From: Escherichia phage PP01
Direction: 5' to 3' (one strand)
Sequence record: NC_054930.1
DNA length: 64,000 nt
Shown: piece after piece, positions 12 to 21,649 of the stretch
How positions within the stretch are numbered: position 1 is the stretch's first letter
How the letters are laid out: every line of letters starts with the position of its first letter
The notes under the pieces: model-generated
What the model was told of the DNA's origin: nothing
Seen by the model: the letters and a program-made list of their open reading frames with translations, nothing else
Database searches by the model: none
Program-made: the position numbers and the translations under genes

Positions 12-2189
12 TTAGGCCGCAAGGGCCTTCATAGTTTTAGCGATTTGGGAAACTTCATCATCACTTAAAGAGTTGCGATAACCGATGAAGTCAGAAACAA
101 TACGGAATTTCTTGGTAAACTCAGCAACCATTTTATCACTGTTTTTTGAAGCATTATTTGATAATACATCAAAAAGATTAGTTACTGTCCAGATGTCATG
201 ACCGATGGTATCTTTTCCACCATTAAAATATACACCCTGTAATGAACTAACCATATTAGCGAGTCGTGTATATTCTTCAGAAACTTCATCTACACTGAAG
301 TACTTCATCATAAAATCTAATTCAGGATACTTGATAATTTTATCAATATATCGTTTAGCTGAACTTGAATAACCTACATACTTATCATAATCTACATCAT
401 CAAAAGCATCTACATATAAATCACGCAAAGCTTCAAAAATACATTGGCACTGACCGAGTTCTTTTACCTTTTTCTGTAAAAGCGGACGAATAACATAAAA
501 TTCATTAATGCCAATAAGATTAGCCATACGAATCAAAATATTCATAGATGGATGACAAAGAGATGTAGTACCATCCATAGAGAAAATATCAGAACGATGC
601 ATATACGCTACATAACCAGTAATTTCATCTGCTTCTGATGTGAGCGTAAATAATTCCTCTTTTTCCCACCGCCCGTCTTTAATTTCAAACTTAAATGCTG
701 TAGCAGCTTTAGGACAAGGAGCTTTACTTTTAACTACCTTTGGAATATAACTTTTTACTAAAGCTTCAATTTCTGACAAATAATGAATGTTAACTTCATC
801 ACTTTCAAACATCGCCATAATATCAGGAAGTAAATCAATCTGTGATTCTACTTCCGGATTAATAAACAGAAGACGCTCATTGTGATGAATATTTAAAGTG
901 TTATTAAATTCTTTATCATCTAACGCATGTGCTAATCCACGGACAATATTAACACGATTTTTAATATTATCAATAACGATATTAATTTTTGTTGTATTAA
1001 TACCAAACAGACGATAACTTGATGCAACGGCTGAAGTTTCATGACTTTGCTTAATGCGTTTCAGTCGAGGGTCAAGATTTACTTCATACACAACTCCTGC
1101 ATTGCATAACTTACTATCAGGTTCAAACATGCTTTGCATCTTCTTATATGACAGATTTTTAGTCGTAAATTTGACTGAATTACTAATCATATAATCTCGA
1201 GCAGAATACCCCATCTTCATCAATTCACGGTATGTGTGACGAGGAGATGTAGATTCTTTAAATCGTTTTACATCTTCATTAAATGCTTTCTCACTGAGTT
1301 CTTTAACTCGTTCAATAATATTTTTACGAGTACGATCATCCAGTGAAAGAGCCTCACGAGATGGAGCAATATCAAGTGAACCCATTGGAAACTTAATGTA
1401 ATTCACTTCATTGCGAATGCTTAGCCAGTTACGGTCTCTAATAACACCATCGATAGGATAAACAATACCGCCATAGATAGCATATAATCCACCACGATCA
1501 GGCCAGTATCTTTCTGGATTTACGCCATAATAATCATCAAAATCCGGAAAATAATCAATTTCGCGGTCAAGACCATTAATGATAGCCAAATCTTTGAACG
1601 GTCGCATGATATAAGAAACTTCATAAGCAAAGTTTCTAAAGTCTTTTTCTTCAACTGGAACTACGATTTCAATACCAGTTTTATCATCTGGACCCATTTC
1701 TTTTACGAATGTAGGTTTAATCTGTGGACCATCACCATCCATATAAGCTACATAACCACGAATTTCACCTTTATGGTATGAAGTAATACTAAACGTATCA
1801 GTATAACTAAATGGAGATTTAGAACCTAAACCAAATCCACCAATGAAATCGTTAGATTCAGCCTTAGATGAACTGAAGTATGAATTATACAGACCAGGAG
1901 AATTATCATCACCCTGAATATCAAAATCACTCATACCCGGACCAAAATCTCGACAAACAAATCGTGGATCTAAACGTCCAGGAACTTGTATGATAAATTT
2001 TTCAGGATTTCCATTGAGTGCATGGGCATCAATCATGTTAGTAATCAATTCACGGACTACTGCGCGAATTTTGTTTGTATACAAATCAGATGACAGAATT
2101 TTAAATACTTTAGGAGATGCTGTGATGCTAAATGCTTTTGATTTAGAACCATTACCAAGAATTGTTTCTTTTTCAGTGGTGATAATCAT
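12..2189 (-). CDS. rIIA: rIIA protein (lysis inhibition / rapid-lysis locus)
   Basis: 725-aa ORF; length, N-terminus and position at the window start match T4 rIIA. Confidence 0.93.
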
Positions 2190-2199
2190 AATTTCCTCA

Positions 2200-2403
2200 T
2201 TAATTCATATTGCGTTTAATAACTTCAGCAACTTCTAGTAGTTCATCTTTAGTTGCGGTGTCGGATTGAATTTTATCTCTAATATCTTTAAAGCGGTTTT
2301 TAAATTCTTCGGCTTCTCCCATATCGAAAAAGCGTTGAATGATTCTATATTCTCGATGAACTGCTTTATCAAAAAGTTCTAAATTTACTTTATATGATTT
2401 CAT
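2200..2403 (-). CDS. rIIA.1: rIIA.1-like small protein
   Basis: 67-aa ORF between rIIA and the topoisomerase gene; GAGGA Shine-Dalgarno upstream; early promoter at 2429-2458. Confidence 0.65.
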
Positions 2404-2428
2404 TTCAATATCCTCATTTGCCCAATTA

Positions 2429-2458
2429 ATTATACCACATCCTTGTGGTAAAGTAAAC
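2429..2458 (-). promoter_or_regulatory. T4-type early promoter (minus strand)
   Basis: Minus-strand GTTTAC, 18 bp, TATAAT preceded by GTGG; upstream of rIIA.1. Confidence 0.65.
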
Positions 2459-4278
2459 TACTGGCTCATCCATTCTTTGCGAAGGTCAGCATTATCTCCC
2501 ATGAGCATTTCAAAAAGCTCTTTCCAGTTCTCAGGAAGTTTAACAACATCATATACTGGATTTTGAATCATCTCACGATATTCAGATTTTTCCAAAGAGC
2601 CAAGTCCCTTAATATAACGGATGCTATGTTTAGGTAGAGCATCTTTGGCACTCTCATATTCAGCGACTGTATAAAACCATTCTTGTTTTTTACCGACTTG
2701 AGCGATGATTACAGGAGTTTTGACAAAGCGAATTCGTCCTTGCTCAAACAGTTCTGGCCAATTACTAAAAAATCCAAGAAGAGAAGGATAAATGCTTCCT
2801 AAACCATCATGGTCAGCATCGGTCATAATAGCAATATTATGATAATTCAAGTTTTCAGCTTTTTCACCAAGAACTAATCCAGTGATTGCGCAAATATCAA
2901 ATAGTTCTTTGTTTTTAAGCATATCAGCATATGACATACCCCAACTGTTGAGAACTTTACCGCGCAATGGATAACCACCGTGAAGTTCTTTATCACGAAC
3001 ATCAATAAGATATCCGATAGCAGAATCACCCTCAGTCAAGAAAAGAGTAGTGTCAGCATCTTTACCGCAAAGATTCGCTTTGATATGTTTATGAACCTTA
3101 GCTTTAGAAGCCTTTTTAGCTGCTTTAGTTTCTGCTGCTTTTTCTGCTGCCAATTTACGGGCCAAGGCAGCTTCAATAATTGGCATCAGAATTGCTTCAT
3201 TATTTAAAATAGCGCGTGAAATCTTTTTAGCATCAAGTTGAATATGACTACGAATTTCGCCAAATGGAGAAGTCAAACGCTCTTTAGTTTGAGAATCAAA
3301 TCGCATGTTTTTCATATCACGGACAAACATAACGATAGTCAAACATTCTTTGACACGTGCTTTAGTTACATCAATTTTGAACTTACGTTTGATTTGTGGA
3401 ATAAGGTCTTCACAAATATCATCCATAACACAGTCAATGTGATGGCCACCATTCTTAGTGTGAATGTTATTCACGTAAGTTAATTGACGAAATCCATCCG
3501 GTGAACGACCAACCGCAATAGAACAATTTTCTTGTTCTTGAACAATAGCATGTTCATCATATTGGCGTGCATATTTCTTAAAATTACCCTGAACCTTTTT
3601 ACCGTTAAAGGTAAATTGAATATCAGGATAAACTACTGCAAGTGTCTGGAGACGATCCAGTGTAATGTCAAGATAAACTTGAGATAGCTCATTAGTTTCA
3701 AATGACATAAAATCAGGAATGAAAGTAACGCGAGTTCCTTTCCATTTTCCAGGAATAGTTTCCCATGATTTATTTTCCATGCCATTTGAACAACGAACCA
3801 CAATATTATTTTGACCGTCGCCAGTTTCACCGACAAACATCACAGAAAAAATGTTAGTTAAACTAGAACCAACACCGTTCATACCGCCAGTGACGCGTTC
3901 TTTATCATCACCAAAGTTGCCGCCTGCTTTTGGAATAGTCCAGGCGGCAACAGGACCAGGAATTTCTTCACCAGTAGGTGTTTTAACCATCGCTTGTGGA
4001 ATACCGCGACCGTTATCTTCAACTGTTACTTGATTGTTTTTAATAGTAACATTAATTTTATTCGCGAATTTAAACTTAGTACGAATACCTTCATCTACTG
4101 AGTTATCGATAATTTCATCAATAAGCTTAACAAGACCAGGTACATACTGAACACTTTCCCATTTACCAAACAGAAAGCGCTCATGCATTTCATTAGCAGA
4201 AGAACCAATGTACATGCCGCTACGCTTTTTGATATGTTCAATATCGCTCAGAATTTTAATTTCATTCTTAATCATCAC
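2458..4278 (-). CDS. 39: DNA topoisomerase II large subunit (GyrB-like ATPase + Toprim), uninterrupted
   Basis: 606-aa continuous ORF; GHKL ATPase motifs (DNGRGIP), Toprim LTEGDSA; corresponds to T4 gp39 plus gp60 as one gene. Confidence 0.9.
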   Translation of the reverse strand: MMIKNEIKILSDIEHIKKRSGMYIGSSANEMHERFLFGKWESVQYVPGLVKLIDEIIDNSVDEGIRTKFKFANKINVTIKNNQVTVEDNGRGIPQAMVKTPTGEEIPGPVAAWTIPKAGGNFGDDKERVTGGMNGVGSSLTNIFSVMFVGETGDGQNNIVVRCSNGMENKSWETIPGKWKGTRVTFIPDFMSFETNELSQVYLDITLDRLQTLAVVYPDIQFTFNGKKVQGNFKKYARQYDEHAIVQEQENCSIAVGRSPDGFRQLTYVNNIHTKNGGHHIDCVMDDICEDLIPQIKRKFKIDVTKARVKECLTIVMFVRDMKNMRFDSQTKERLTSPFGEIRSHIQLDAKKISRAILNNEAILMPIIEAALARKLAAEKAAETKAAKKASKAKVHKHIKANLCGKDADTTLFLTEGDSAIGYLIDVRDKELHGGYPLRGKVLNSWGMSYADMLKNKELFDICAITGLVLGEKAENLNYHNIAIMTDADHDGLGSIYPSLLGFFSNWPELFEQGRIRFVKTPVIIAQVGKKQEWFYTVAEYESAKDALPKHSIRYIKGLGSLEKSEYREMIQNPVYDVVKLPENWKELFEMLMGDNADLRKEWMSQ

Positions 4279-5162: not shown

Positions 5163-5582
5163 TTATTCCTTAAAGTGTGCTTTCAACATCTGATACAAGG
5201 ACCATGCCTGTTCATTATTTTCAATAGTAACTTTCATGACAGGAAATTCTGTGAAATCTTCTATTTGTTCTTGCTCTTCCTGCTCTTGCTCTTCAGCTGC
5301 CTGATATGGATTTTCCACTTCATCAAAGAACTCAGCTTCGTTAGTAGAAAGCCAGATAAAGTTTTCATCAAGGATATCACCATGTTTTGCATATCCAATT
5401 GTGCCAGTAAATGACATAATTTTAGTAGGACGACCAAGATGGTCAGCATCTAAAATTTTAAAAGGATGCATACCTAAACGGCGTGCATAGATTCCGTTAT
5501 CAGTATGGTCTTTAATAAAAGCTTCTTGAGCCTGTTTATTTTTAAATTGATACCATTTATTAACTTCAAATCTAATAGCCAT
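5163..5582 (-). CDS. hypothetical protein with acidic [10 protein letters not shown] tract
   Basis: 139-aa ORF; strongly acidic stretch near C-terminus. Confidence 0.5.
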
Positions 5583-15378: not shown

Positions 15379-15624
15379 TTATTCACCAGTTACTTTCCAC
15401 AAATCTTCGTTTGCAGTAATCCATTCAGTACGTTGATTTTCTTCATATACTGTAGAATATGCTGCTTTTTCTGAAGGGAATATCTGATAATGAGCGCCAG
15501 AAATTTTGTGAACGTCAGAATAAAGAGGGAAAGCTACAGAAATTTCCTTTCCTTCAATTTTCTTATTTCCATCTAATTTTTGCTCAAATGTTTTAATATT
15601 AACATAACCGCGAGTACTAGCCAT
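15379..15624 (-). CDS. soc: small outer capsid protein Soc
   Basis: Sequence MASTRGYVNIKTFEQKLDG... matches T4 Soc as recalled; late-promoter TATAAATA upstream; terminator downstream. Confidence 0.9.
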   Translation of the reverse strand: MASTRGYVNIKTFEQKLDGNKKIEGKEISVAFPLYSDVHKISGAHYQIFPSEKAAYSTVYEENQRTEWITANEDLWKVTGE

Positions 15625-15640
15625 GTAATTCTCCTTTTAT

Positions 15641-15850
15641 TTAAATTACATGACTATTTATAATAAATTCTTGCGGAACGTTAAAATACCCAATTTTAGT
15701 TAATATAACAACATCACCGTTAATAATTACCGGAGAATAATCGGCTGGAGCATTAAACTTCCAATGAGCTCTAATATTATATCCATCAGAACCAAATGCT
15801 CGACTAGCCGGTCTCCCGGCTTTTTGCCATGCATAAAAATCAAATTTCAT
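15641..15850 (-). CDS. small hypothetical protein
   Basis: 69-aa ORF; occupies the locus where T4 has segF. Confidence 0.4.
   Translation of the reverse strand: MKFDFYAWQKAGRPASRAFGSDGYNIRAHWKFNAPADYSPVIINGDVVILTKIGYFNVPQEFIINSHVI
15655..15662 (-). promoter_or_regulatory. late promoter upstream of soc
   Basis: Exact minus-strand TATAAATA about 31 nt upstream of the soc ATG. Confidence 0.6.
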
Positions 15851-16047
15851 TTTGAATGCTCTATAATTAATTTTAAGGCTTCTTCATGCACCTTACCTAA
15901 TTGTATATGTCCAGTTTTAATTGTGTAAGCTTTGTGGAGCTGATTAGATAAGAGCTCGTATGTGAGCTCCTTGTCATAATTTTTAAATAGCTGGTCAATA
16001 CGTTTCTTGTGGGCTTTCTTAAGCTGGCGTTTATTTAAACGAGCCAT
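15847..16047 (-). CDS. small basic hypothetical protein
   Basis: 66-aa ORF overlapping neighbours by 1-4 nt. Confidence 0.4.
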   Translation of the reverse strand: MARLNKRQLKKAHKKRIDQLFKNYDKELTYELLSNQLHKAYTIKTGHIQLGKVHEEALKLIIEHSK

Positions 16048-16565
16048 TAATAACCTCGGTCTTGACGAGCGAAGTTTTCAGCATTTTTCAGATAATAAAG
16101 TTTAAAGATTTCTTCAGCTGACATTCCAAGAGCAATGAATTTATTCATGAAAAAGTGAAATTGATCAATCAATTCAAATTTAATTTCAAGTTGATCTTCA
16201 GGAGATAAATCTTGAATTTTCTTGGATTGCATTTCAGAATAACGTTTCTTCCAAGGTTTCCATACAGCAGAAGCTTCTTTTTCGCCATTGCTCATACCAC
16301 CAAGAGAAGTATATAGCTCGCGAGTTTCGTCTGCGATATAATCGTCTTGGTTTCGCAGCCAAGCAAGAACTTCTCCCGCAGTTTCAAGCGAATCGGGGTG
16401 ACGATTCGTTTCTGGTTTATCATTAGCCAAACGAATCTGTAAATGCCGCTGCATATCAAGCATAACCTGCAGTGGGTCAATATTGTGCATAATATTCTCA
16501 GCATATGCACGATTTGCTTTATCAACACCTTCGATCAAATGAGCGCATTCATTAAAGTAAGCCAT
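16047..16565 (-). CDS. 56: dCTPase/dUTPase (MazG-like NTP pyrophosphatase)
   Basis: ORF track 16047-16658; internal Met at 16565 gives about 171 aa as in T4 gp56. Confidence 0.75.
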   Translation of the reverse strand: MAYFNECAHLIEGVDKANRAYAENIMHNIDPLQVMLDMQRHLQIRLANDKPETNRHPDSLETAGEVLAWLRNQDDYIADETRELYTSLGGMSNGEKEASAVWKPWKKRYSEMQSKKIQDLSPEDQLEIKFELIDQFHFFMNKFIALGMSAEEIFKLYYLKNAENFARQDRGY

Positions 16566-16636
16566 TATTTTTCCTTTCAATTCATGAGTTAGTAGATTAA
16601 TTATACAATAAATATATAAAGCAATAAGGAGGATAT

Positions 16637-16837
16637 ATGGTACAAAAATTAATGGCACTTGTTAATGCCATAAAAGGTAATAAAAAACGTATAGCTTTTA
16701 CTATTTCTGCTATGATAGGAATTTTACTCTGGAATTTTGTTTTATCGCCAATTGCTATTGCTCATGGTGTTAATATTCCAGTAATTACTCTTGATACATT
16801 CGTAGATTTAGCATTTGCTTTGGTTGGGTTAATTTAA
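16637..16837 (+). CDS. small hydrophobic membrane protein (plus strand)
   Basis: 66-aa ORF preceded by AAGGAGG 7 nt from ATG; lies between the divergent 56 and 61 ends; two hydrophobic segments. Confidence 0.5.
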   Translation: MVQKLMALVNAIKGNKKRIAFTISAMIGILLWNFVLSPIAIAHGVNIPVITLDTFVDLAFALVGLI

Positions 16838-17862
16838 ATCTTAGCATATTTAGATAGCCGCATTTTAGCCATCAACCCTTGAGCAATATTATTTTTCATA
16901 TATTCCATAATTTGTTCAGGGGTTGCACCTTCCTTTCTAATCATATCATTAACATCTTTTGATTTCCAGGGAGATTTGTCCCAAAACATAACCCTTTCTC
17001 CTGCATCAACTAATTTAGTCATTCGTTTAATAGTGTCAGGATGACGAGGTTCATTATCTAAAACCCACACACGTCTATCTTTAAATGGAACAATTTCTAG
17101 GTCTAATTGACCACCCGTAATAGCTATACCATTTTCAATAAAAAGCGAATCTATAGGTCCTTCTAGAACATATACATCGCCATCTTTAACCCGTTCAACT
17201 CCATAGATTTTTGTTGCCTCAGGATAAGCTTTGATGGTGATATATTTTTGAGGAGCATCTTTCTTTAACGCACGGCCTTGAAAAGACTCAGCTTTTCCAT
17301 TAGCATTATAAATTGGAATAACAAGACGAGGCTCAGGTATTTCCTTTTTGTATGTTCCTGGTGCTATGCTATTAACTAATTTAGGCCATTCGGTTGTAAA
17401 CCAAAGATATTTCCATTTATCCTTTGGAATACAGCGAGCTTTTACATATTTTATAATTGGATGGTCTTCCGCCAGTTTATCTAATCTAACGCATGACGGA
17501 AGAGATTTAATTATTTTCTTCTCAGGTTGTTTAGGAAGTTCTTTAGGTTTTTCTACTGGACGACTTTTACCTTTTTCTTTTCTTATTTCAAAGATATACT
17601 CACGATATAAATCGGGTTCAAACTCCTTTAAATATATTCCGATTGGTGCATGATAGTTGCAGTTATAACAATGAATATTTCCTTCATTATTATCGCCATA
17701 ATACCATCCACGGGCTTTATTTTGGTCGGTTTTTGAATCTCCACAAACAGGGCATCTAAACCGCAATTTAAAAGTTGAACTATTATTTACTTGTGTGAAT
17801 TTAGGTAAATGAGCCAATGCACGGTATGCAAACTCATTATCAATCCAAGGTATTGATGACAT
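16834..17862 (-). CDS. 61: DNA primase
   Basis: 342 aa as in T4 gp61; zinc ribbon CPVCGDS...CYNC; Toprim region. Confidence 0.9.
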   Translation of the reverse strand: MSSIPWIDNEFAYRALAHLPKFTQVNNSSTFKLRFRCPVCGDSKTDQNKARGWYYGDNNEGNIHCYNCNYHAPIGIYLKEFEPDLYREYIFEIRKEKGKSRPVEKPKELPKQPEKKIIKSLPSCVRLDKLAEDHPIIKYVKARCIPKDKWKYLWFTTEWPKLVNSIAPGTYKKEIPEPRLVIPIYNANGKAESFQGRALKKDAPQKYITIKAYPEATKIYGVERVKDGDVYVLEGPIDSLFIENGIAITGGQLDLEIVPFKDRRVWVLDNEPRHPDTIKRMTKLVDAGERVMFWDKSPWKSKDVNDMIRKEGATPEQIMEYMKNNIAQGLMAKMRLSKYAKI

Positions 17863-17864
17863 TT

Positions 17865-18029
17865 TTACTCTTCTTTTTCTTTAGATTCCTCTTTTTTCTT
17901 TTTAGGAATCTGTTCAGGACCTTTATTTACTGCAGCGCCTGACGTTGTTCCAGTGGAGATATTTTCAGGATTACCACCCGAATCTCCAGCTACCATATCT
18001 TCTTTGATAAATTCTTTATATGTTTTCAT
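17865..18029 (-). CDS. small hypothetical protein (61.1 position)
   Basis: 54-codon ORF found by hand (MKTYKEFIKEDMVAGDSGGN...); fills gap between 61 and the next gene. Confidence 0.35.
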   Translation of the reverse strand: MKTYKEFIKEDMVAGDSGGNPENISTGTTSGAAVNKGPEQIPKKKKEESKEKEE

Positions 18030-18030
18030 A

Positions 18031-18387
18031 TTAACCTCTATTCATAAAAGCATTAAAAATTTGGTCATCAATCGATGGAATAGCAACCTTTTCGGCATCA
18101 TTTAGCAAATCATTAATTTCATCAGATAGCATAACGCATGTACCTTTATTTCCTGTAATTGTTACTGCACAATTACGAACGTTTTCTTTATCAAATTTTA
18201 GGTTAATATTTTCGTAGTGAAAATCCTTTAATGCCGAATATATTTTTAAAATGAAATTGTCTTTTACTACAATAAACCCAACCTCACTATTAAAACGTGG
18301 TTCATGGAAACTGTAATAAACCTTTTCATCTATAAAATCGTATGAAATTTTTTCCATTTTTAAATATGAAAATTCAGAACTATACAT
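18031..18387 (-). CDS. hypothetical protein (61.2 position)
   Basis: 118-aa ORF. Confidence 0.45.
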   Translation of the reverse strand: MYSSEFSYLKMEKISYDFIDEKVYYSFHEPRFNSEVGFIVVKDNFILKIYSALKDFHYENINLKFDKENVRNCAVTITGNKGTCVMLSDEINDLLNDAEKVAIPSIDDQIFNAFMNRG

Positions 18388-18399
18388 ACTAACCTCTAA

Positions 18400-18693
18400 T
18401 TACTCACCTACCACTTCAGCGATGATATTTTTATTATTGAAGTTTTTATCACAATACAGAACGTAATTATACTGCATTACACCACCAGACTTAAGTTGTT
18501 TTTGCACTTCAGCTTTCATTTCAGGACGATCACGCTCAACGATATTCATAATATCCGCTTCAATTTGAGTTTCAACTTCAGTCTGATCTGCAGTCATAGA
18601 CCACTCACACAAATCTTTGTCATAACCCGCCATAGCAGGCTGAGCAGCGCAAGAAGATAAAGCAAAAATTGCAGCAAAGATAAATTTTTTCAT
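18400..18693 (-). CDS. sp: Spackle periplasmic protein
   Basis: 97 aa with cleavable signal peptide MKKFIFAAIFALSSCAAQPAMA; size/position as T4 Sp. Confidence 0.65.
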   Translation of the reverse strand: MKKFIFAAIFALSSCAAQPAMAGYDKDLCEWSMTADQTEVETQIEADIMNIVERDRPEMKAEVQKQLKSGGVMQYNYVLYCDKNFNNKNIIAEVVGE

Positions 18694-18719
18694 GATAATC
18701 TCCTCAGTAGTTTATGTTT

Positions 18720-18749
18720 ATAGTATCTCAATTTTCAACAAAAGTAAAC
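18720..18749 (-). promoter_or_regulatory. early promoter upstream of sp
   Basis: GTTTAC, 18 bp, TACTAT. Confidence 0.45.
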
Positions 18750-18796
18750 ACTAGTAGAAGCAAACAGACAAATTGCAATAATTGGTGATTTCAGTT

Positions 18797-18982
18797 TCAT
18801 TCTCCTCCTCCTCCTTCATGTTGATGAACATATTCTTTTTCAAGTCTAGAGCACAAGTTTTCATATTCAACTAATAAAAATGAATCAAGTGCGTTATTTC
18901 TATGCTGACACCGTTCTTGTAAAGAATCCATCTCTGAACGTTGTTCTTGTGTTAATAATTGATAACCTGATACTTTAGACAT
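18797..18982 (-). CDS. small hypothetical protein
   Basis: ORF track 18797-18994 (MENKM); second Met is the likelier start. Confidence 0.4.
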   Translation of the reverse strand: MSKVSGYQLLTQEQRSEMDSLQERCQHRNNALDSFLLVEYENLCSRLEKEYVHQHEGGGGE

Positions 18983-19046
18983 TTTGTTCTCCATTTACTC
19001 GTTTGTTTTGATAGGTCTATAATAACATGTTTAAAATAAAAGTAAA

Positions 19047-19301
19047 CTATTTTATTTCCTCAAGTTCGTTAATCAATAAAAGTTCTCTGACGCTAAAAAC
19101 AAAGAAAAATGTGTTCCCATCAACCAGAGCATGACCGCTAATAGAACACCCTCTGCGGAATTTAGAAACTTCACAATCTAGAACTGTAAAGGGTTTTAAT
19201 CCTATGACTTTAGCTGTGCGTCTATTCAGTTCACAACCACTCGCGAATTTTTCCAAATCTTCTTCTGATTTAAACTGATATTCTCTATTAACTAGCATCA
19301 T
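19047..19301 (-). CDS. small hypothetical protein (61.4 region)
   Basis: 84-aa ORF downstream of early promoter at 19333-19362. Confidence 0.45.
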   Translation of the reverse strand: MMLVNREYQFKSEEDLEKFASGCELNRRTAKVIGLKPFTVLDCEVSKFRRGCSISGHALVDGNTFFFVFSVRELLLINELEEIK

Positions 19302-19332
19302 TTTCTTTTCTCCGCGATTAGCTGATAGAATT

Positions 19333-19362
19333 ACTATAACACAACTCTATCAGCTTGTAAAC
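19333..19362 (-). promoter_or_regulatory. early promoter
   Basis: GTTTAC, 18 bp, TATAGT. Confidence 0.5.
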
Positions 19363-19364
19363 TA

Positions 19365-19607
19365 CTATTTTACTAGCATCAATAACTGTTTCTCTAACTT
19401 GACGATTTTACGAAAGTATCTTTTGCATTGGCGAATCTGCCGCTTCGTAGGGCGCACAGCAAACTTAATAAATTCCACTCGACCAAATGGAGGACTTTCT
19501 TCTGCTGGAATATCTAACACCAATTCCCACGTATCTGCAACAAGTGCTTTGAATTGAGTATTTTTCCTGACATTATACGGAGTAGGTTTAAATAAAACAA
19601 TATGCAT
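19365..19607 (-). CDS. small basic hypothetical protein
   Basis: ORF track 19365-19649; the Met at 19607 directly abuts the dmd stop. Confidence 0.4.
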   Translation of the reverse strand: MHIVLFKPTPYNVRKNTQFKALVADTWELVLDIPAEESPPFGRVEFIKFAVRPTKRQIRQCKRYFRKIVKLEKQLLMLVK

Positions 19608-19608
19608 A

Positions 19609-19791
19609 TTATCCTCGACAATCAACTTCACATACTTTCTTGTCATCAATGAAAGCTTTAATTAATGCTTTATTAACTTCAGCATATTGAGTAGTAGCCC
19701 ATTGAACGTCATCTTTCATCATTGTGATTTCTTTAGTAAACATGCTTTCATTCTTAAACCGCCCCATAAAAACTACCTTTACCAATTCCAT
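19609..19791 (-). CDS. dmd: Dmd-like antitoxin (inhibitor of RnlA/LsoA)
   Basis: 60 aa; position next to gene 41 and size match T4 Dmd. Confidence 0.6.
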   Translation of the reverse strand: MELVKVVFMGRFKNESMFTKEITMMKDDVQWATTQYAEVNKALIKAFIDDKKVCEVDCRG

Positions 19792-19820
19792 AACAATCTC
19801 CCCATTTAACCAACAAGACT

Positions 19821-19850
19821 ACTATACCATAGTCTTGTCAGCTTGTAAAC
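19821..19850 (-). promoter_or_regulatory. early promoter upstream of dmd
   Basis: GTTTAC, 18 bp, TATAGT with TGG; overlaps the gene 41 stop. Confidence 0.5.
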
Positions 19851-21277
19851 TAAAATTTTAATTCATTTGCCAAAGCATCTAACTGAGCTCGAGCCGATTC
19901 ATTTCTTTGATAGCGATTCTGCTCAGCTTGAATCTGCTGTGAACCTGCCACTTCGTTCACTTCAGTTGGAGTAGAATCTTGTTCAATTTCTACCCATTTC
20001 TGATTTCCTTTTTGAACACCCATCAAAAACTTATTCCATTTATTCTTATCACCATATCGTGATTTGATTTGCTTAATTAGTTGTTGTTCAGCAGCTGCTA
20101 ACTCCTCGGTTTCAATGACCGCAAGCATAAAATCGGCTGTTGCTGGAAGACCGGCAGATTCTGCAATATCGCTCATGTTAACATCAGAAGAATCCCAAGC
20201 TTGTTTACCAACCTGTGCTGCGGTCCAAAGAACAGTTTCGGTTTCAACAGCCAGAGCACGCAATTCTTCTGCGATGGCTTTAACAGTTGTGTAACTATTT
20301 TCTGAGTAAACTCTGATGCGGCAAGATTTACAAATACCTAGATAGTCGACAATAATGATTGTTGGAACAAAATTCTTCTTGAGCTTTAATTCATTTAAAA
20401 GCGACCGAAATGTATTAGCGTCTGCTCCACCAGTAGGATACTGTTTAACGATTAAACGTCCAAGAGTAGATTTCTCACGCCATTTTTCCATTTTTCCTTT
20501 ATATTCAGCGTAAGAAATATGCCCATCATCAATGTCATCAAGAGAAACGTCAAGCATATTAGCATCAATACGTTTAGCACAGACTTCTTCTGCCATTTCC
20601 ATGGAAATGTAAAGAACATTATGTCCGAGCTGCAAATAATCTGCTGCCAATGAACACAGACCTAATGACTTACCAACGTTAACACCAGCCATTAAAACGT
20701 TCAGTGTTCCAGTTTCAGCTCCGCCTTTAGTAATTTTATTTAGAATTTTGAGTTTAAATGGAACCTTACGAGCTTTATTCATATAAGATAGCCAACGTGC
20801 TTCGTAGTCATCCATCCAATCATGACCAACGTAGCTATCAAATGAAATTGATAATGCTTGGCGCATGATGTCAGGAATAGCACCTACATCTGGCATTTTC
20901 TTATTTCGTTTTTCCGGAGGAAGCTCAGCATTAGTTTGAATTTCAATTATTTTAGATGTGGCGTTAAACATCGCCCTTTGCTGAACATATTTTTCTGTTT
21001 CTTTTACTAACCAGCTATGGTCTTCCGGAGAATCGGCCAGTTTTGAAATAAGTGTTTTTACACCAGAATATTCTGTTTCAGTAAATGAACTATTTTCTAA
21101 CGCAACATTTAACGCATTAATAGATGGAACGCTATGATACTCGTTAACATGAGATTTAATTAATTTGAATGTATTTTTAGCTGGACCACTTTCAAAATAT
21201 TCTGAATCCATATATGGCCAAACTTTTGAAAAATAAGCTTGATCAAATATGAGATGAGAAAGAATAATTTCTACCAC
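19850..21277 (-). CDS. 41: replicative DNA helicase (DnaB-like)
   Basis: 475 aa as in T4 gp41; Walker A GVNVGKS. Confidence 0.9.
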   Translation of the reverse strand: MVEIILSHLIFDQAYFSKVWPYMDSEYFESGPAKNTFKLIKSHVNEYHSVPSINALNVALENSSFTETEYSGVKTLISKLADSPEDHSWLVKETEKYVQQRAMFNATSKIIEIQTNAELPPEKRNKKMPDVGAIPDIMRQALSISFDSYVGHDWMDDYEARWLSYMNKARKVPFKLKILNKITKGGAETGTLNVLMAGVNVGKSLGLCSLAADYLQLGHNVLYISMEMAEEVCAKRIDANMLDVSLDDIDDGHISYAEYKGKMEKWREKSTLGRLIVKQYPTGGADANTFRSLLNELKLKKNFVPTIIIVDYLGICKSCRIRVYSENSYTTVKAIAEELRALAVETETVLWTAAQVGKQAWDSSDVNMSDIAESAGLPATADFMLAVIETEELAAAEQQLIKQIKSRYGDKNKWNKFLMGVQKGNQKWVEIEQDSTPTEVNEVAGSQQIQAEQNRYQRNESARAQLDALANELKF

Positions 21278-21286
21278 ACTTACTCC

Positions 21287-21649
21287 TTAAAAGAATTTAA
21301 ATTTTTTCTTTGACCTTTTATTAAATGCATCTTGTAGTTGCATTGTAATACATTTTTCTACATGAGGAGCTAACTCAGCTTTTCTTTCTTGGTCAAGAAC
21401 AGCAAAGTCCATTACGACTTTTCCATCAACCCAATCTAATTTTGTCACATACACAATGTGTGTAGAACCGTCTTCTAGTTTAATGACAATCTCCTGGATA
21501 ACATTTTCCATGGCAGATTTAATTATCTTAAGAGATTCATTAAAAAGACGTTCTTTTCTTTCTTCTTCCCCCTCCGAAGAGGGGGATTCGTCGATAATTT
21601 CTAGATCTAAATCCAAATCATCTTTATTCATTAAATTCTTCCATATCAC
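21287..21649 (-). CDS. 40: gp40-like head assembly protein
   Basis: 120-aa acidic ORF between 41 and uvsX as in T4. Confidence 0.5.
   Translation of the reverse strand: MIWKNLMNKDDLDLDLEIIDESPSSEGEEERKERLFNESLKIIKSAMENVIQEIVIKLEDGSTHIVYVTKLDWVDGKVVMDFAVLDQERKAELAPHVEKCITMQLQDAFNKRSKKKFKFF

Follow-up and report, generated by a model that had tools for sequence, protein, structure and literature searches.

Small genes between primase gene 61 and helicase gene 41 of Escherichia phage PP01: a probable Tequatrovirus version of the T4 anti-TA island

The stretch of Escherichia phage PP01 DNA analysed here (NC_054930.1, 64,000 nucleotides; hereafter the window) carries an islet of seven co-oriented minus-strand ORFs (17865-19791), tiled between primase gp61 and helicase gp41. 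This islet is very probably (about 85%) the Tequatrovirus version of the anti-TA island of phage T4, a group of small toxin inhibitors together with a superinfection-exclusion protein, with cassettes exchanged via PeSL elements. The T4 region dmd-tifA-sp-adfA-61.1 was named 'anti-TA island' by Srikant, Guegler & Laub (2022, eLife 11:e79549), and this published island agrees with the original statement that the T4 interval holds dmd together with other counter-defence genes. The wider reading of the 61-41 interval as a hotspot of counter-defence genes is likewise supported: three of the seven ORFs are homologous to characterised anti-toxin factors (Dmd, TifA and the AdfA family), and the gene content varies cassette by cassette. 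The region is an example of a compact locus, dense in promoters, that T4-like phages maintain and in which small anti-toxin genes are swapped at regulatory repeats. The literature already has the hotspot idea, this principle of exchange and, as main genes, dmd, tifA, adfA and sp; the islet is real and well explained, it is not new, and the window adds little new knowledge. Its practical value lies in three conserved small candidate proteins and in natural near-isogenic phages that are one cassette apart and usable for target finding.

Layout of the islet and comparison with T4

All seven short ORFs expected between genes 61 and 41 were located, and the flanking genes are those claimed (Table 1). 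The coding density of the islet is 87%. Of the six sizes announced, five are as predicted, but the ORF announced as 62 aa has 61 residues; its start was placed at the ATG at 18982, and not at the ATG at 18994 of the 65-aa mechanical ORF, because the SD sequence GGAG and the joint in phage Ec_MI-02 fix it there. Each ORF had been credited with its own early promoter or with tight coupling to its neighbour. This agrees with three strong promoters, a weaker site ahead of sp and the narrow gaps of dmd/tifA, sp/118-aa, 118-aa/61.1 and 61.1/61, which measure 1-12 nt or abut with 0-2 nt.

Table 1 Features of the islet and its surroundings, in window coordinates
Feature	Position	Strand	Remarks
goF, the window's own copy	5163-5582		
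gp61, primase	16834-17862		Flanking gene of the islet
Gene 61.1, 54 aa	17865-18029	-	Low-complexity Lys/Glu-rich tail; translationally coupled to primase gene 61
Short AdfA paralog, 118 aa	18031-18387	-	61.2 slot, T2-type occupant; homology to the C-terminal ~100 AdfA residues only
sp (Spackle), 97 aa	18400-18693	-	Secreted periplasmic superinfection-exclusion protein; N-terminal signal peptide ending AMA/G (slash, cleavage)
Promoter-like site (weaker) for sp-118aa-61.1-61	18720-18749	-	GTTTAC-18-TACTAT; downstream 61-aa cassette joint at its -35 box
Acidic helical-hairpin protein, 61 aa, cassette 2	18797-18982	-	Small phage-only family; not in T4 or T2
Early promoter of the 61-aa cassette	19019-19047	-	TG-extended GTTTAC-17-TATTAT, running over the 84-aa stop codon
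84-aa protein, cassette 1	19047-19301	-	Corresponds to the GoF N-terminal domain alone; second GoF paralog
PeSL-type element, upstream border region of the insertion	19309-19372	-	Early promoter 19333-19362 (GTTTACA-17-TATAGT), 14-bp hairpin 19320-19355, SD of the 84-aa ORF
tifA (gene 61.4), 80 aa	19365-19607	-	ToxN-inhibitory RNA-binding protein by homology; mechanical ORF 94 aa from TTG
dmd (61.5), 60 aa	19609-19791	-	Antitoxin mimic versus RnlA/LsoA; leads the dmd-tifA operon
PeSL-type element upstream of dmd	19797-19860	-	Early promoter 19821-19850, 15-bp hairpin embedded in it at 19808-19843; element runs over the gene 41 stop codon
gp41, helicase	19850-21277		Flanking gene of the islet

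Since all seven ORFs match PHROG families (E<=3e-20), they are not chance ORFs. None of the seven proteins matched NCBIfam, PDB sequence searches with the 118-, 84-, 61- and 80-aa proteins gave nothing significant, a word-indexed protein search returned close relatives only (5, 1 and 5 clusters), and no RNA family was found by Rfam over 16500-21500. The genome is that of a Tequatrovirus, with 98-99% identity to phages IME339 and ime09. The interval is covered to at least 80% in only 27 of 520 matching phage records.

The T4 anti-TA island has the same position, strand, flanks and early-promoter organisation as the islet. The comparison with T4 61.1-61.4/dmd that had been proposed holds for Dmd, TifA, Sp and gp61.1 (93-97% identity), but the 84-aa and 61-aa proteins are not found in T4, and the 118-aa protein stands against a T4 AdfA of 208 aa. 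The T4 island has the long AdfA and no cassettes, whereas the window has the 118-aa paralog, two cassettes between tifA and sp and an altered TifA tail. The non-dmd ORFs had been regarded as unassignable from sequence, which proved too pessimistic, as the 80-aa protein is TifA and the 118-aa protein an AdfA-family paralog. The systems once put forward for plating assays, toxIN, DarTG and RnlAB/LsoAB, are those against which T4 genes of this interval are already proven to act.

Proteins shared with the T4 island

The gene dmd is the first one downstream of gene 41, stands under an early promoter and is co-operonic with tifA, its stop codon lying 1 nt from the tifA start. In T4, an early promoter drives dmd-tifA (Srikant, Guegler & Laub 2022, eLife 11:e79549). 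The 60-aa ORF beside gene 41 had been called Dmd-like, correctly so: it matches Pfam Dmd (PF17587, E=1.5e-44) over residues 1-60 of 60 and is 97% identical to T4 Dmd. By homology to tested proteins, Dmd would bind and block the RNase toxins RnlA/LsoA.

TifA affiliates with Pfam DUF7279 (PF23945; E=6e-20, 71.3 bits versus a cut-off of 24.5) and shares 93% identity with T4 TifA, residues 1-74 being the same apart from V23I. Published work on TifA (PMC10853763) describes a PT cap with a basic, RNA-binding C-terminal helix, and a loop around residue 41 that faces ToxN. T4 has the same residues in P53-T54-KRQIRQCKRYFRKIVK, where the cap leads into the basic helix, and in the residue-41 loop (...PPFGRVE...). 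The tail is rewritten because the cassette joint falls inside the 3' end of tifA: the last 6 codons read LLMLVK versus 11 in T4 (FVTCDYAEILK), and the C-terminal extension of the T2/T4/T6 type is missing. This extension is not essential, since RB69 TifA is active without it (Srikant et al. 2022, eLife 11:e79549). Homology to tested proteins suggests that TifA would bind ToxN and RNA, blocking the type III system toxIN.

A secreted Spackle-like protein had been expected, and the 97-aa protein answers this description with a match to Pfam T4_Spackle (PF25676, E=2.8e-45) over residues 1-96 of 96, a signal peptide (MKKFIFAAIFALSSCAAQPAMA) read from the sequence, the conserved Cys residues and 97% identity to T4 Sp. 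As its homolog, it would be exported and would inhibit the tail lysozyme of a superinfecting phage. Since Spackle serves superinfection exclusion and not anti-defence, the island is not functionally homogeneous. A similarity of the Sp C-terminus to AdfA residues 74-90, seen as a tblastn extension, was rejected as chance; the T4 Sp C-terminus is the same and lies upstream of a full-length adfA. The last shared protein, gp61.1, is 94% identical to its T4 counterpart and affiliates with phrog_1823 (E=1.5e-32), with no match in Pfam or NCBIfam.

Regulatory repeats, cassettes and the GoF-like protein

The 64-kb window has 14 copies of the T4-type early-promoter motif GTTTAC-N17-19-TAWWRT, always on the minus strand, versus 0.45 expected; three of these sites belong to the islet and precede dmd, the 84-aa ORF and the 61-aa ORF. 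The elements ahead of dmd and of the 84-aa ORF form a 64-nt direct repeat (70% identity), and both contain a hairpin (dG -18.9 kcal/mol, z=-4.7, and dG -18.0 kcal/mol, z=-3.8, respectively). No hairpin was found at the 61-aa promoter (z=+1.1). The promoter-like element of sp is identical in T4 and T2 and is a direct repeat with the 61-aa promoter. Published PeSL elements follow the promoter consensus TTTACW-N17-TAYWAT and enclose a stem-loop (Comeau et al. 2014, PMC4122927). As in PeSL shuffling, repeated hairpin promoters border ORFan indels of near-identical phages (Arbiol et al. 2010, PMC2839356; Comeau et al. 2014, PMC4122927). In contrast to that scheme, only two of the four islet promoters have a hairpin, and the Ec_MI-02 joint uses SD microhomology (GGAGAA), not a promoter.

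Relative to T2, the window has gained about 610 bp, which lie between the 3' end of tifA and the promoter of sp; this insertion carries the 84-aa and 61-aa genes. The T2 interval (MH751506) has the gene order of the window, including the 118-aa '61.2' at 94% identity, without both cassettes and with a TifA tail of the T4 type. A series of relatives carries neither cassette (T2), the 84-aa gene only (SH7), the 61-aa gene only (Ec_MI-02) or both (the window and IME339/ime09). The joints lie at GGAGA (SD) and at GTTTACTTTT (early-promoter -35 boxes), that of SH7 at GTTT(A/G)CTTTT. The cassettes would be gained and lost singly via recombination at these repeated motifs (-35 box GTTTAC(T)TTT and SD GGAGA), that is, by the PeSL mechanism. 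The interval of RB69 holds 11 genes, including imm and imm.1 at the sp/61.4 junction, and that of Gaprivervirus SP18 carries its own set.

The 84-aa protein of cassette 1, whose gene is missing from T4 and T2 at the islet site, affiliates with phrog_2980 'goF' (E=3e-20) and more distantly with phrog_13003 (E=1.7e-3). BLASTP aligned it with T4 GoF residues 7-47 (37% identity, E=2e-8), and full-length alignment with the GoF N-terminal domain gave 25-28% identity. The GoF/MotB.1/Frd.2 family consists of early proteins for which an LSm-like fold of five antiparallel beta strands is predicted (Kim et al. 2025, PMC12152347). The motif VNxxYQFK...PF.(I/V)LD is common to the GoF N-terminal domain and the 84-aa protein. 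GoF has in addition an acidic linker and a C-terminal domain, whereas the 84-aa protein is without both and has four residues (C23, C43, C52 and H57) that are invariant in the short family and missing from GoF. Of the 82 phage records with this protein, 69 have it at >=95% identity and the other 13 at ~57%; SP18 is among the latter, and its homolog adjoins gene 41 inside the 41-61 interval. The AF2 model of the 84-aa protein is of low confidence (pLDDT 61, pTM 0.47), showing two helices, three long strands and, at the C-terminus, a further helix, so that it does not confirm an LSm-like fold; a BFVD fold search with this low-confidence model returned its own homolog only. The variant GoF(D25Y) stabilises RNA, and the sole known phenotype of the GoF family concerns the stability of phage gene 41 mRNA. 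Most plausibly, though with low confidence, the 84-aa protein may act on RNA or on an RNase-type toxin.

The most serious alternative, to which we give slightly less than an even chance, is that the two cassettes and gp61.1 are ordinary accessories of host takeover or phage RNA metabolism, placed here by recombination-permissive PeSL/promoter repeats. The GoF-like protein could then modulate phage mRNA stability, for instance that of the neighbouring gene 41 transcript, in keeping with the only phenotype known for its family. In T4-like genomes every hyperplastic region has ORFans bounded by PeSLs, whatever their function (PMC4122927), which also suits accessories, as do the superinfection immunity genes imm/imm.1 at the RB69 sp/61.4 junction and the fact that Spackle is not an anti-defence protein. 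The clustering of three experimentally supported anti-toxin families within 2 kb argues against it, and so does the GoF-like gene in the 41-61 interval of another genus (SP18), which is a neighbourhood association only.

Read as an anti-TA island, the interval would be a hyperplastic region of early genes, set between two core replication genes, in which small stoichiometric inhibitors of host abortive-infection toxins are stockpiled. The 84-aa and 61-aa proteins might then be further early-expressed binders of host factors, a suggestion of low confidence. It is possible, if rather doubtful, that at least one of the 84-aa, 61-aa and 118-aa 'mini-AdfA' proteins is a new inhibitor of a TA or abortive-infection system with a target other than RnlA, ToxN or DarT1.

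The short AdfA paralog and the helical-hairpin protein

The 118-aa protein scores 34.1 bits with Pfam AdfA (PF23813, cut-off 27) at profile positions 113-211 of 211. In an hhalign comparison of the short family with long AdfA, residues 21-118 align to 109-208 (probability 97%, E=7.8e-11). Long AdfA (anti-DarT factor A, gp61.2 of T4 and RB69) is a two-part protein of ~208 aa, with 30-37% identity to the 118-aa protein. Common to both are residues ~109-208, the residue-164 segment and the invariant C-terminal motif IDDQIFNAFMNRG, whereas the 118-aa protein lacks the N-terminal ~95-110 residues; no AdfA N-terminal half was found elsewhere in the window. In AdfA, residue 164 decides binding of the ADP-ribosyltransferase DarT1, His being the neutralising allele and Arg an inactive one (AdfA paper). 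The position aligned with RB69 R164 and T4 H164 is Cys73 in the 118-aa protein, which thus has neither His nor Arg there, and this Cys is invariant across the short family. The protein appears to be a stand-alone AdfA C-terminal domain that would bind a DarT-like or other toxin; the Cys at position 164 suggests that its specificity would be different.

In the AdfA paper, phage T2 counts as 'naturally lacking an adfA homolog'; T2 turns DarTG1-sensitive on deletion of adfN. As T2 carries the short paralog, the latter gives no protection from that DarT1 at native level. The bona fide AdfA of T4 is likewise not protective against that DarT1 at native level. The T2 phenotype and the missing N-terminal half would both suit a decaying adfA remnant, an N-terminally truncated pseudogene without a function of its own. 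Such a remnant is nonetheless very unlikely, as 291 phage records, T2 included, carry an intact ORF at >=90% identity, and SP18 keeps it at 46% identity with an invariant core (NV..CAV.ITGN) and tail (IDDQIFNAFM.RG). It also has its own SD, 12 nt past the sp stop codon, and phiD1 has a full-length adfA together with two tandem copies, as paralog families do and remnants do not. Among Tequatrovirus phages, this AdfA paralog reduced to a single domain is no rarer than the long form that has been studied.

The 61-aa protein of cassette 2 affiliates with phrog_37915 (E=8e-45) and has no match in Pfam, NCBIfam or PDB. It was found in 19 phage records, all >=98% identical, and forms a single 90% cluster in 5.8e9 proteins. 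A full HMMER scan added nine distant relatives (47-69% identity) with 14 invariant positions; the family motif is GYxLLTxEQRxEMDxLxER..H...LDA..L.EYE.LC.RLE.EY. The positions of Cys vary among them, and a Zn-ribbon reading was rejected because the Cys residues are not conserved in the family. Two of the distant relatives lie in an unrelated 87-kb viral contig and in a 21.6-kb contig; their gene neighbourhoods were uninformative, and the 84-aa gene adjoining one of them has no relationship to the GoF-like ORF. No relative turned up when 185,579 bacterial and archaeal genomes were scanned for the family, so the scan lends no support to an origin from a bacterial antitoxin. Fold searches of PDB and BFVD with the AF2 model, which has helices at 12-27 and 31-56, returned generic helical hairpins and one unnamed homolog. 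That the ORF arose by chance in an AT-rich spacer would agree with the blank family and structure searches and with 19 copies too alike to reveal selection within Tequatrovirus, but this is scarcely credible given the nine relatives with their invariant positions, one of them in the unrelated viral contig, the confident model (pLDDT 88) and the ORF's own early promoter and GGAG SD.

Gene content and early promoters of the interval between genes 61 and 41

The interval between the primase and helicase genes is tiled by seven small minus-strand ORFs with a coding density of 87%, each matching a PHROG family at E ≤ 3e-20. The original prediction of seven co-oriented ORFs thus holds, and its ORF lengths needed only small corrections: the ORF given as 62 aa has 61 aa, and the start codon of the 80-aa ORF was reassigned (see table). 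GenBank holds the same sequence with the islet ORFs annotated.

Features of the window and of two homologous loci
Feature	Position	Strand	Assignment or remark
Topoisomerase ORF	2458-4278	-	single ORF, 606 aa
goF proper	5163-5582
soc, 56, 61 region	15379-16834
66-aa ORF	16637-16837	+	hydrophobic; resembles RB69ORF029w
Primase gp61	16834-17862	-
Small-ORF islet	17865-19791	-	seven ORFs
54-aa ORF		-	gp61.1; 94% identity to T4
97-aa ORF		-	Spackle; 97% identity to T4, Pfam E=2.8e-45, signal peptide
Segment at Sp C-terminus	18400-18450	-	likeness to T4 AdfA residues 74-90
Mini-ORF	18735-18800	-	21 codons, hydrophobic
61-aa ORF, start	18982	-	ATG, with GGAG Shine-Dalgarno (SD) sequence
TifA tail	19365-19385	-	LLMLVK
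80-aa ORF, start	19607	-	ATG; TifA (gp61.4); 93% identity to T4, Pfam DUF7279
60-aa ORF		-	Dmd; 97% identity to T4, Pfam E=1.5e-44
Helicase gp41	19850-21277	-
phiD1 adfA locus (L005)	1821-3357		Yersinia phage
SP18 homolog of 84-aa ORF (L006)	3771-4019		adjoins gene 41

The gene order in T4 is 61, 61.1, 61.2, sp, 61.4, dmd, 41. T2 shares this order, but its 61.2 slot is filled by a 118-aa protein; the window has the T2 layout with two ORFs added in the sp/61.4 gap. Among 520 phage records matching the 2.4 kb around the islet, the best were Tequatrovirus IME339 (98.8% nucleotide identity), ime09 (98.3%) and relatives, and only 27 covered at least 80% of the interval. The window begins at rIIA, exactly as in a T4-type genome record.

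For the strict T4 early-promoter motif, GTTTAC-N17-19-TAWWRT, the 64-kb window has 14 sites where chance would give 0.45, and every one is on the minus strand. Three of these sites fall inside the 1.9-kb islet, before dmd, the 84-aa ORF and the 61-aa ORF. Upstream of sp lies a weaker site, and the islet genes without a promoter site of their own are translationally coupled, as had been predicted; the dmd stop codon, for example, lies 1 nt before the tifA start.

Conserved counter-defence genes and the AdfA family

Spackle acts on the gp5 lysozyme of superinfecting phage. TifA was discovered as an inhibitor of ToxN (Srikant et al. 2022, eLife 11:e79549) and binds ToxN plus RNA (Guegler et al., PMC10853763). 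The Pro-Thr cap, the basic helix and the residue-41 loop are unaltered in the window TifA, and its difference from the T4 protein is confined to the dispensable C-terminal tail, which reads FVTCDYAEILK in T4 and T2. The tail is altered because the upstream joint of the inserted ORFs falls within the last tifA codons, and tail type co-varies with the presence of a downstream cassette.

The 118-aa ORF scores 34.1 bits against Pfam AdfA (gathering score 27), covering profile positions 113-211 only. Profile-profile comparison aligned residues 21-118 of this short family with residues 109-208 of the long AdfA (97% probability, E=7.8e-11), and the C-terminal motif IDDQIFNAFM(N/K)RG is common to both families across genera. 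The non-dmd ORFs had been considered unassignable from sequence, which was wrong for TifA and for this AdfA paralog. AdfA (gp61.2) is an anti-DarT factor in which His or Arg at position 164 decides DarT1 binding. The aligned residue of the 118-aa protein, Cys73, lies within the best-conserved block of the short family (NV..CAV.ITGN) and is invariant throughout it, including the 46%-identical homolog from Gaprivervirus SP18.

A reading of the 118-aa form as an adfA remnant was rejected: intact copies are found at ≥90% identity in 291 records, T2 among them (the long T4-type AdfA in about 232 at that identity), and phage phiD1 encodes a full-length adfA followed by two tandem 118-aa copies with a 33-codon ORF between them. 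In phiD1 the AdfA family has expanded locally. T2 was scored as lacking adfA (LeRoux and colleagues) and is DarTG1-sensitive when adfN is deleted; therefore, the short paralog does not neutralise that DarT1 at its native level. With tblastn, the alignment to T4 AdfA continued past the sp stop codon and took in the C-terminus of Sp (DKNFNNKNIIAEVVGE vs DYNWFNHDNLVHIEGVG). This likeness was judged to be chance, since T4 Sp has the same C-terminus.

The GoF-like and 61-aa cassettes

The 84-aa protein, encoded at 19047-19301 on the minus strand, matches phrog_2980 (E=3e-20) and GoF (37% identity over 41 residues, E=2e-8; 25-28% over its full length against the GoF N-terminal domain). This domain is predicted to adopt an LSm-like fold, and GoF(D25Y) stabilises RNA (Kim et al. 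2025, PMC12152347). In contrast to GoF, the 84-aa protein has neither the acidic linker nor the C-terminal domain, and residues C23, C43, C52 and H57, absent from GoF, are invariant in the short GoF-like family (82 phage records). These residues may form a metal site. The homolog in SP18, located in the same 41-61 interval, has a below-threshold zf-CGNR match (E=0.002). The AlphaFold2 (AF2) model of the 84-aa protein gave low confidence for the fold (pLDDT 61).

The 61-aa ORF is a real, phage-restricted small protein. Its start is confirmed by Ec_MI-02, which lacks an upstream in-frame ATG. Copies were present in only 19 phage records, all at least 98% identical, and form one cluster among 5.8 billion proteins. 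A full HMMER scan recovered nine relatives (47-69% identity, 14 invariant positions); an unrelated viral contig of 87 kb and a contig of 21.6 kb contain one each, and bacterial genomes gave no match. AF2 predicted a confident helical hairpin (pLDDT 88), for which a search of structural neighbours found nothing informative.

A mini-ORF (MKLKSPIIAICLFASTSVYFC) follows, its ATG sharing bases with the TGA that ends the 61-aa ORF (ATGA). The GGAGGAGGAGGAG run just upstream, which encodes a GGGGE tail, is a strong SD sequence. The mini-ORF belongs to the 61-aa cassette; Ec_MI-02 has it too, differing at a single amino acid, and the copies are all near-identical.

Four states of the tifA/sp junction exist among close relatives: neither cassette (T2, T4), the 84-aa ORF only (SH7), the 61-aa ORF only (Ec_MI-02) and both (the window, ime09, IME339). 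In DNA alignments the joints fall on regulatory motifs. The 61-aa cassette is absent from SH7 exactly between two -35 boxes (GTTTACTTTT), and the 84-aa ORF from Ec_MI-02 between two SD sequences (GGAGAA). A direct repeat of 64 nt (70% identity) has one copy upstream of dmd and one upstream of the 84-aa ORF. Both copies comprise an early promoter in which a hairpin of 14-15 bp is embedded (dG -18 to -19 kcal/mol; z-scores -3.8 and -4.7); its structure is conserved between them although the stem sequences differ. These elements match the promoter-early stem-loops (PeSL) known from T4-type phages, including the consensus TTTACW-N17-TAYWAT (PMC2839356, PMC4122927). More distant relatives differ in the cargo of this interval: RB69 carries 11 genes, among them imm and imm.1, which also lie at the tifA/sp junction, and SP18 has another gene set.

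Proposed action of the islet and neighbouring loci

Homology to tested proteins supports a view of the islet as an early-expressed set of small proteins, each binding one host or rival-phage target: Dmd directed at RnlA/LsoA, TifA at ToxN, AdfA-type proteins at DarT and Spackle at the gp5 lysozyme. The 118-aa protein would resemble the AdfA C-terminal domain in action, but towards a toxin with another specificity. RNA or an RNase-type toxin would be the target of the GoF-like protein, and the proposed role of the 61-aa hairpin is stoichiometric binding. Recombination at the repeated promoter and SD motifs would account for turnover.

The counter-defence hotspot is real and its main point was correctly read, but it is already known: Srikant, Guegler and Laub proposed the region as an 'anti-TA island' with its other genes as antitoxin candidates. 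No later paper characterising the remaining island genes was found in the literature searched. The natural single-cassette variants could help to find the targets of three conserved small proteins that are candidate inhibitors.

Outside the islet, the 66-aa ORF is the sole plus-strand gene in this part of the window, convergent with the primase gene (4-nt overlap at the 3' ends) and hypothetical in the annotations of ime09, T2 and RB69; all genes of the islet region itself are on the minus strand. The soc, 56, 61 region contains no dam or segF ORF, in contrast to T4 (segF and dam) and T2 (dam and an extra ORF), and the soc-56 gap holds two small ORFs of 69 and 66 aa. The topoisomerase ORF is the unsplit form of T4 genes 39 and 60, which in T4 are split, with mobA and a 50-nt translational bypass.
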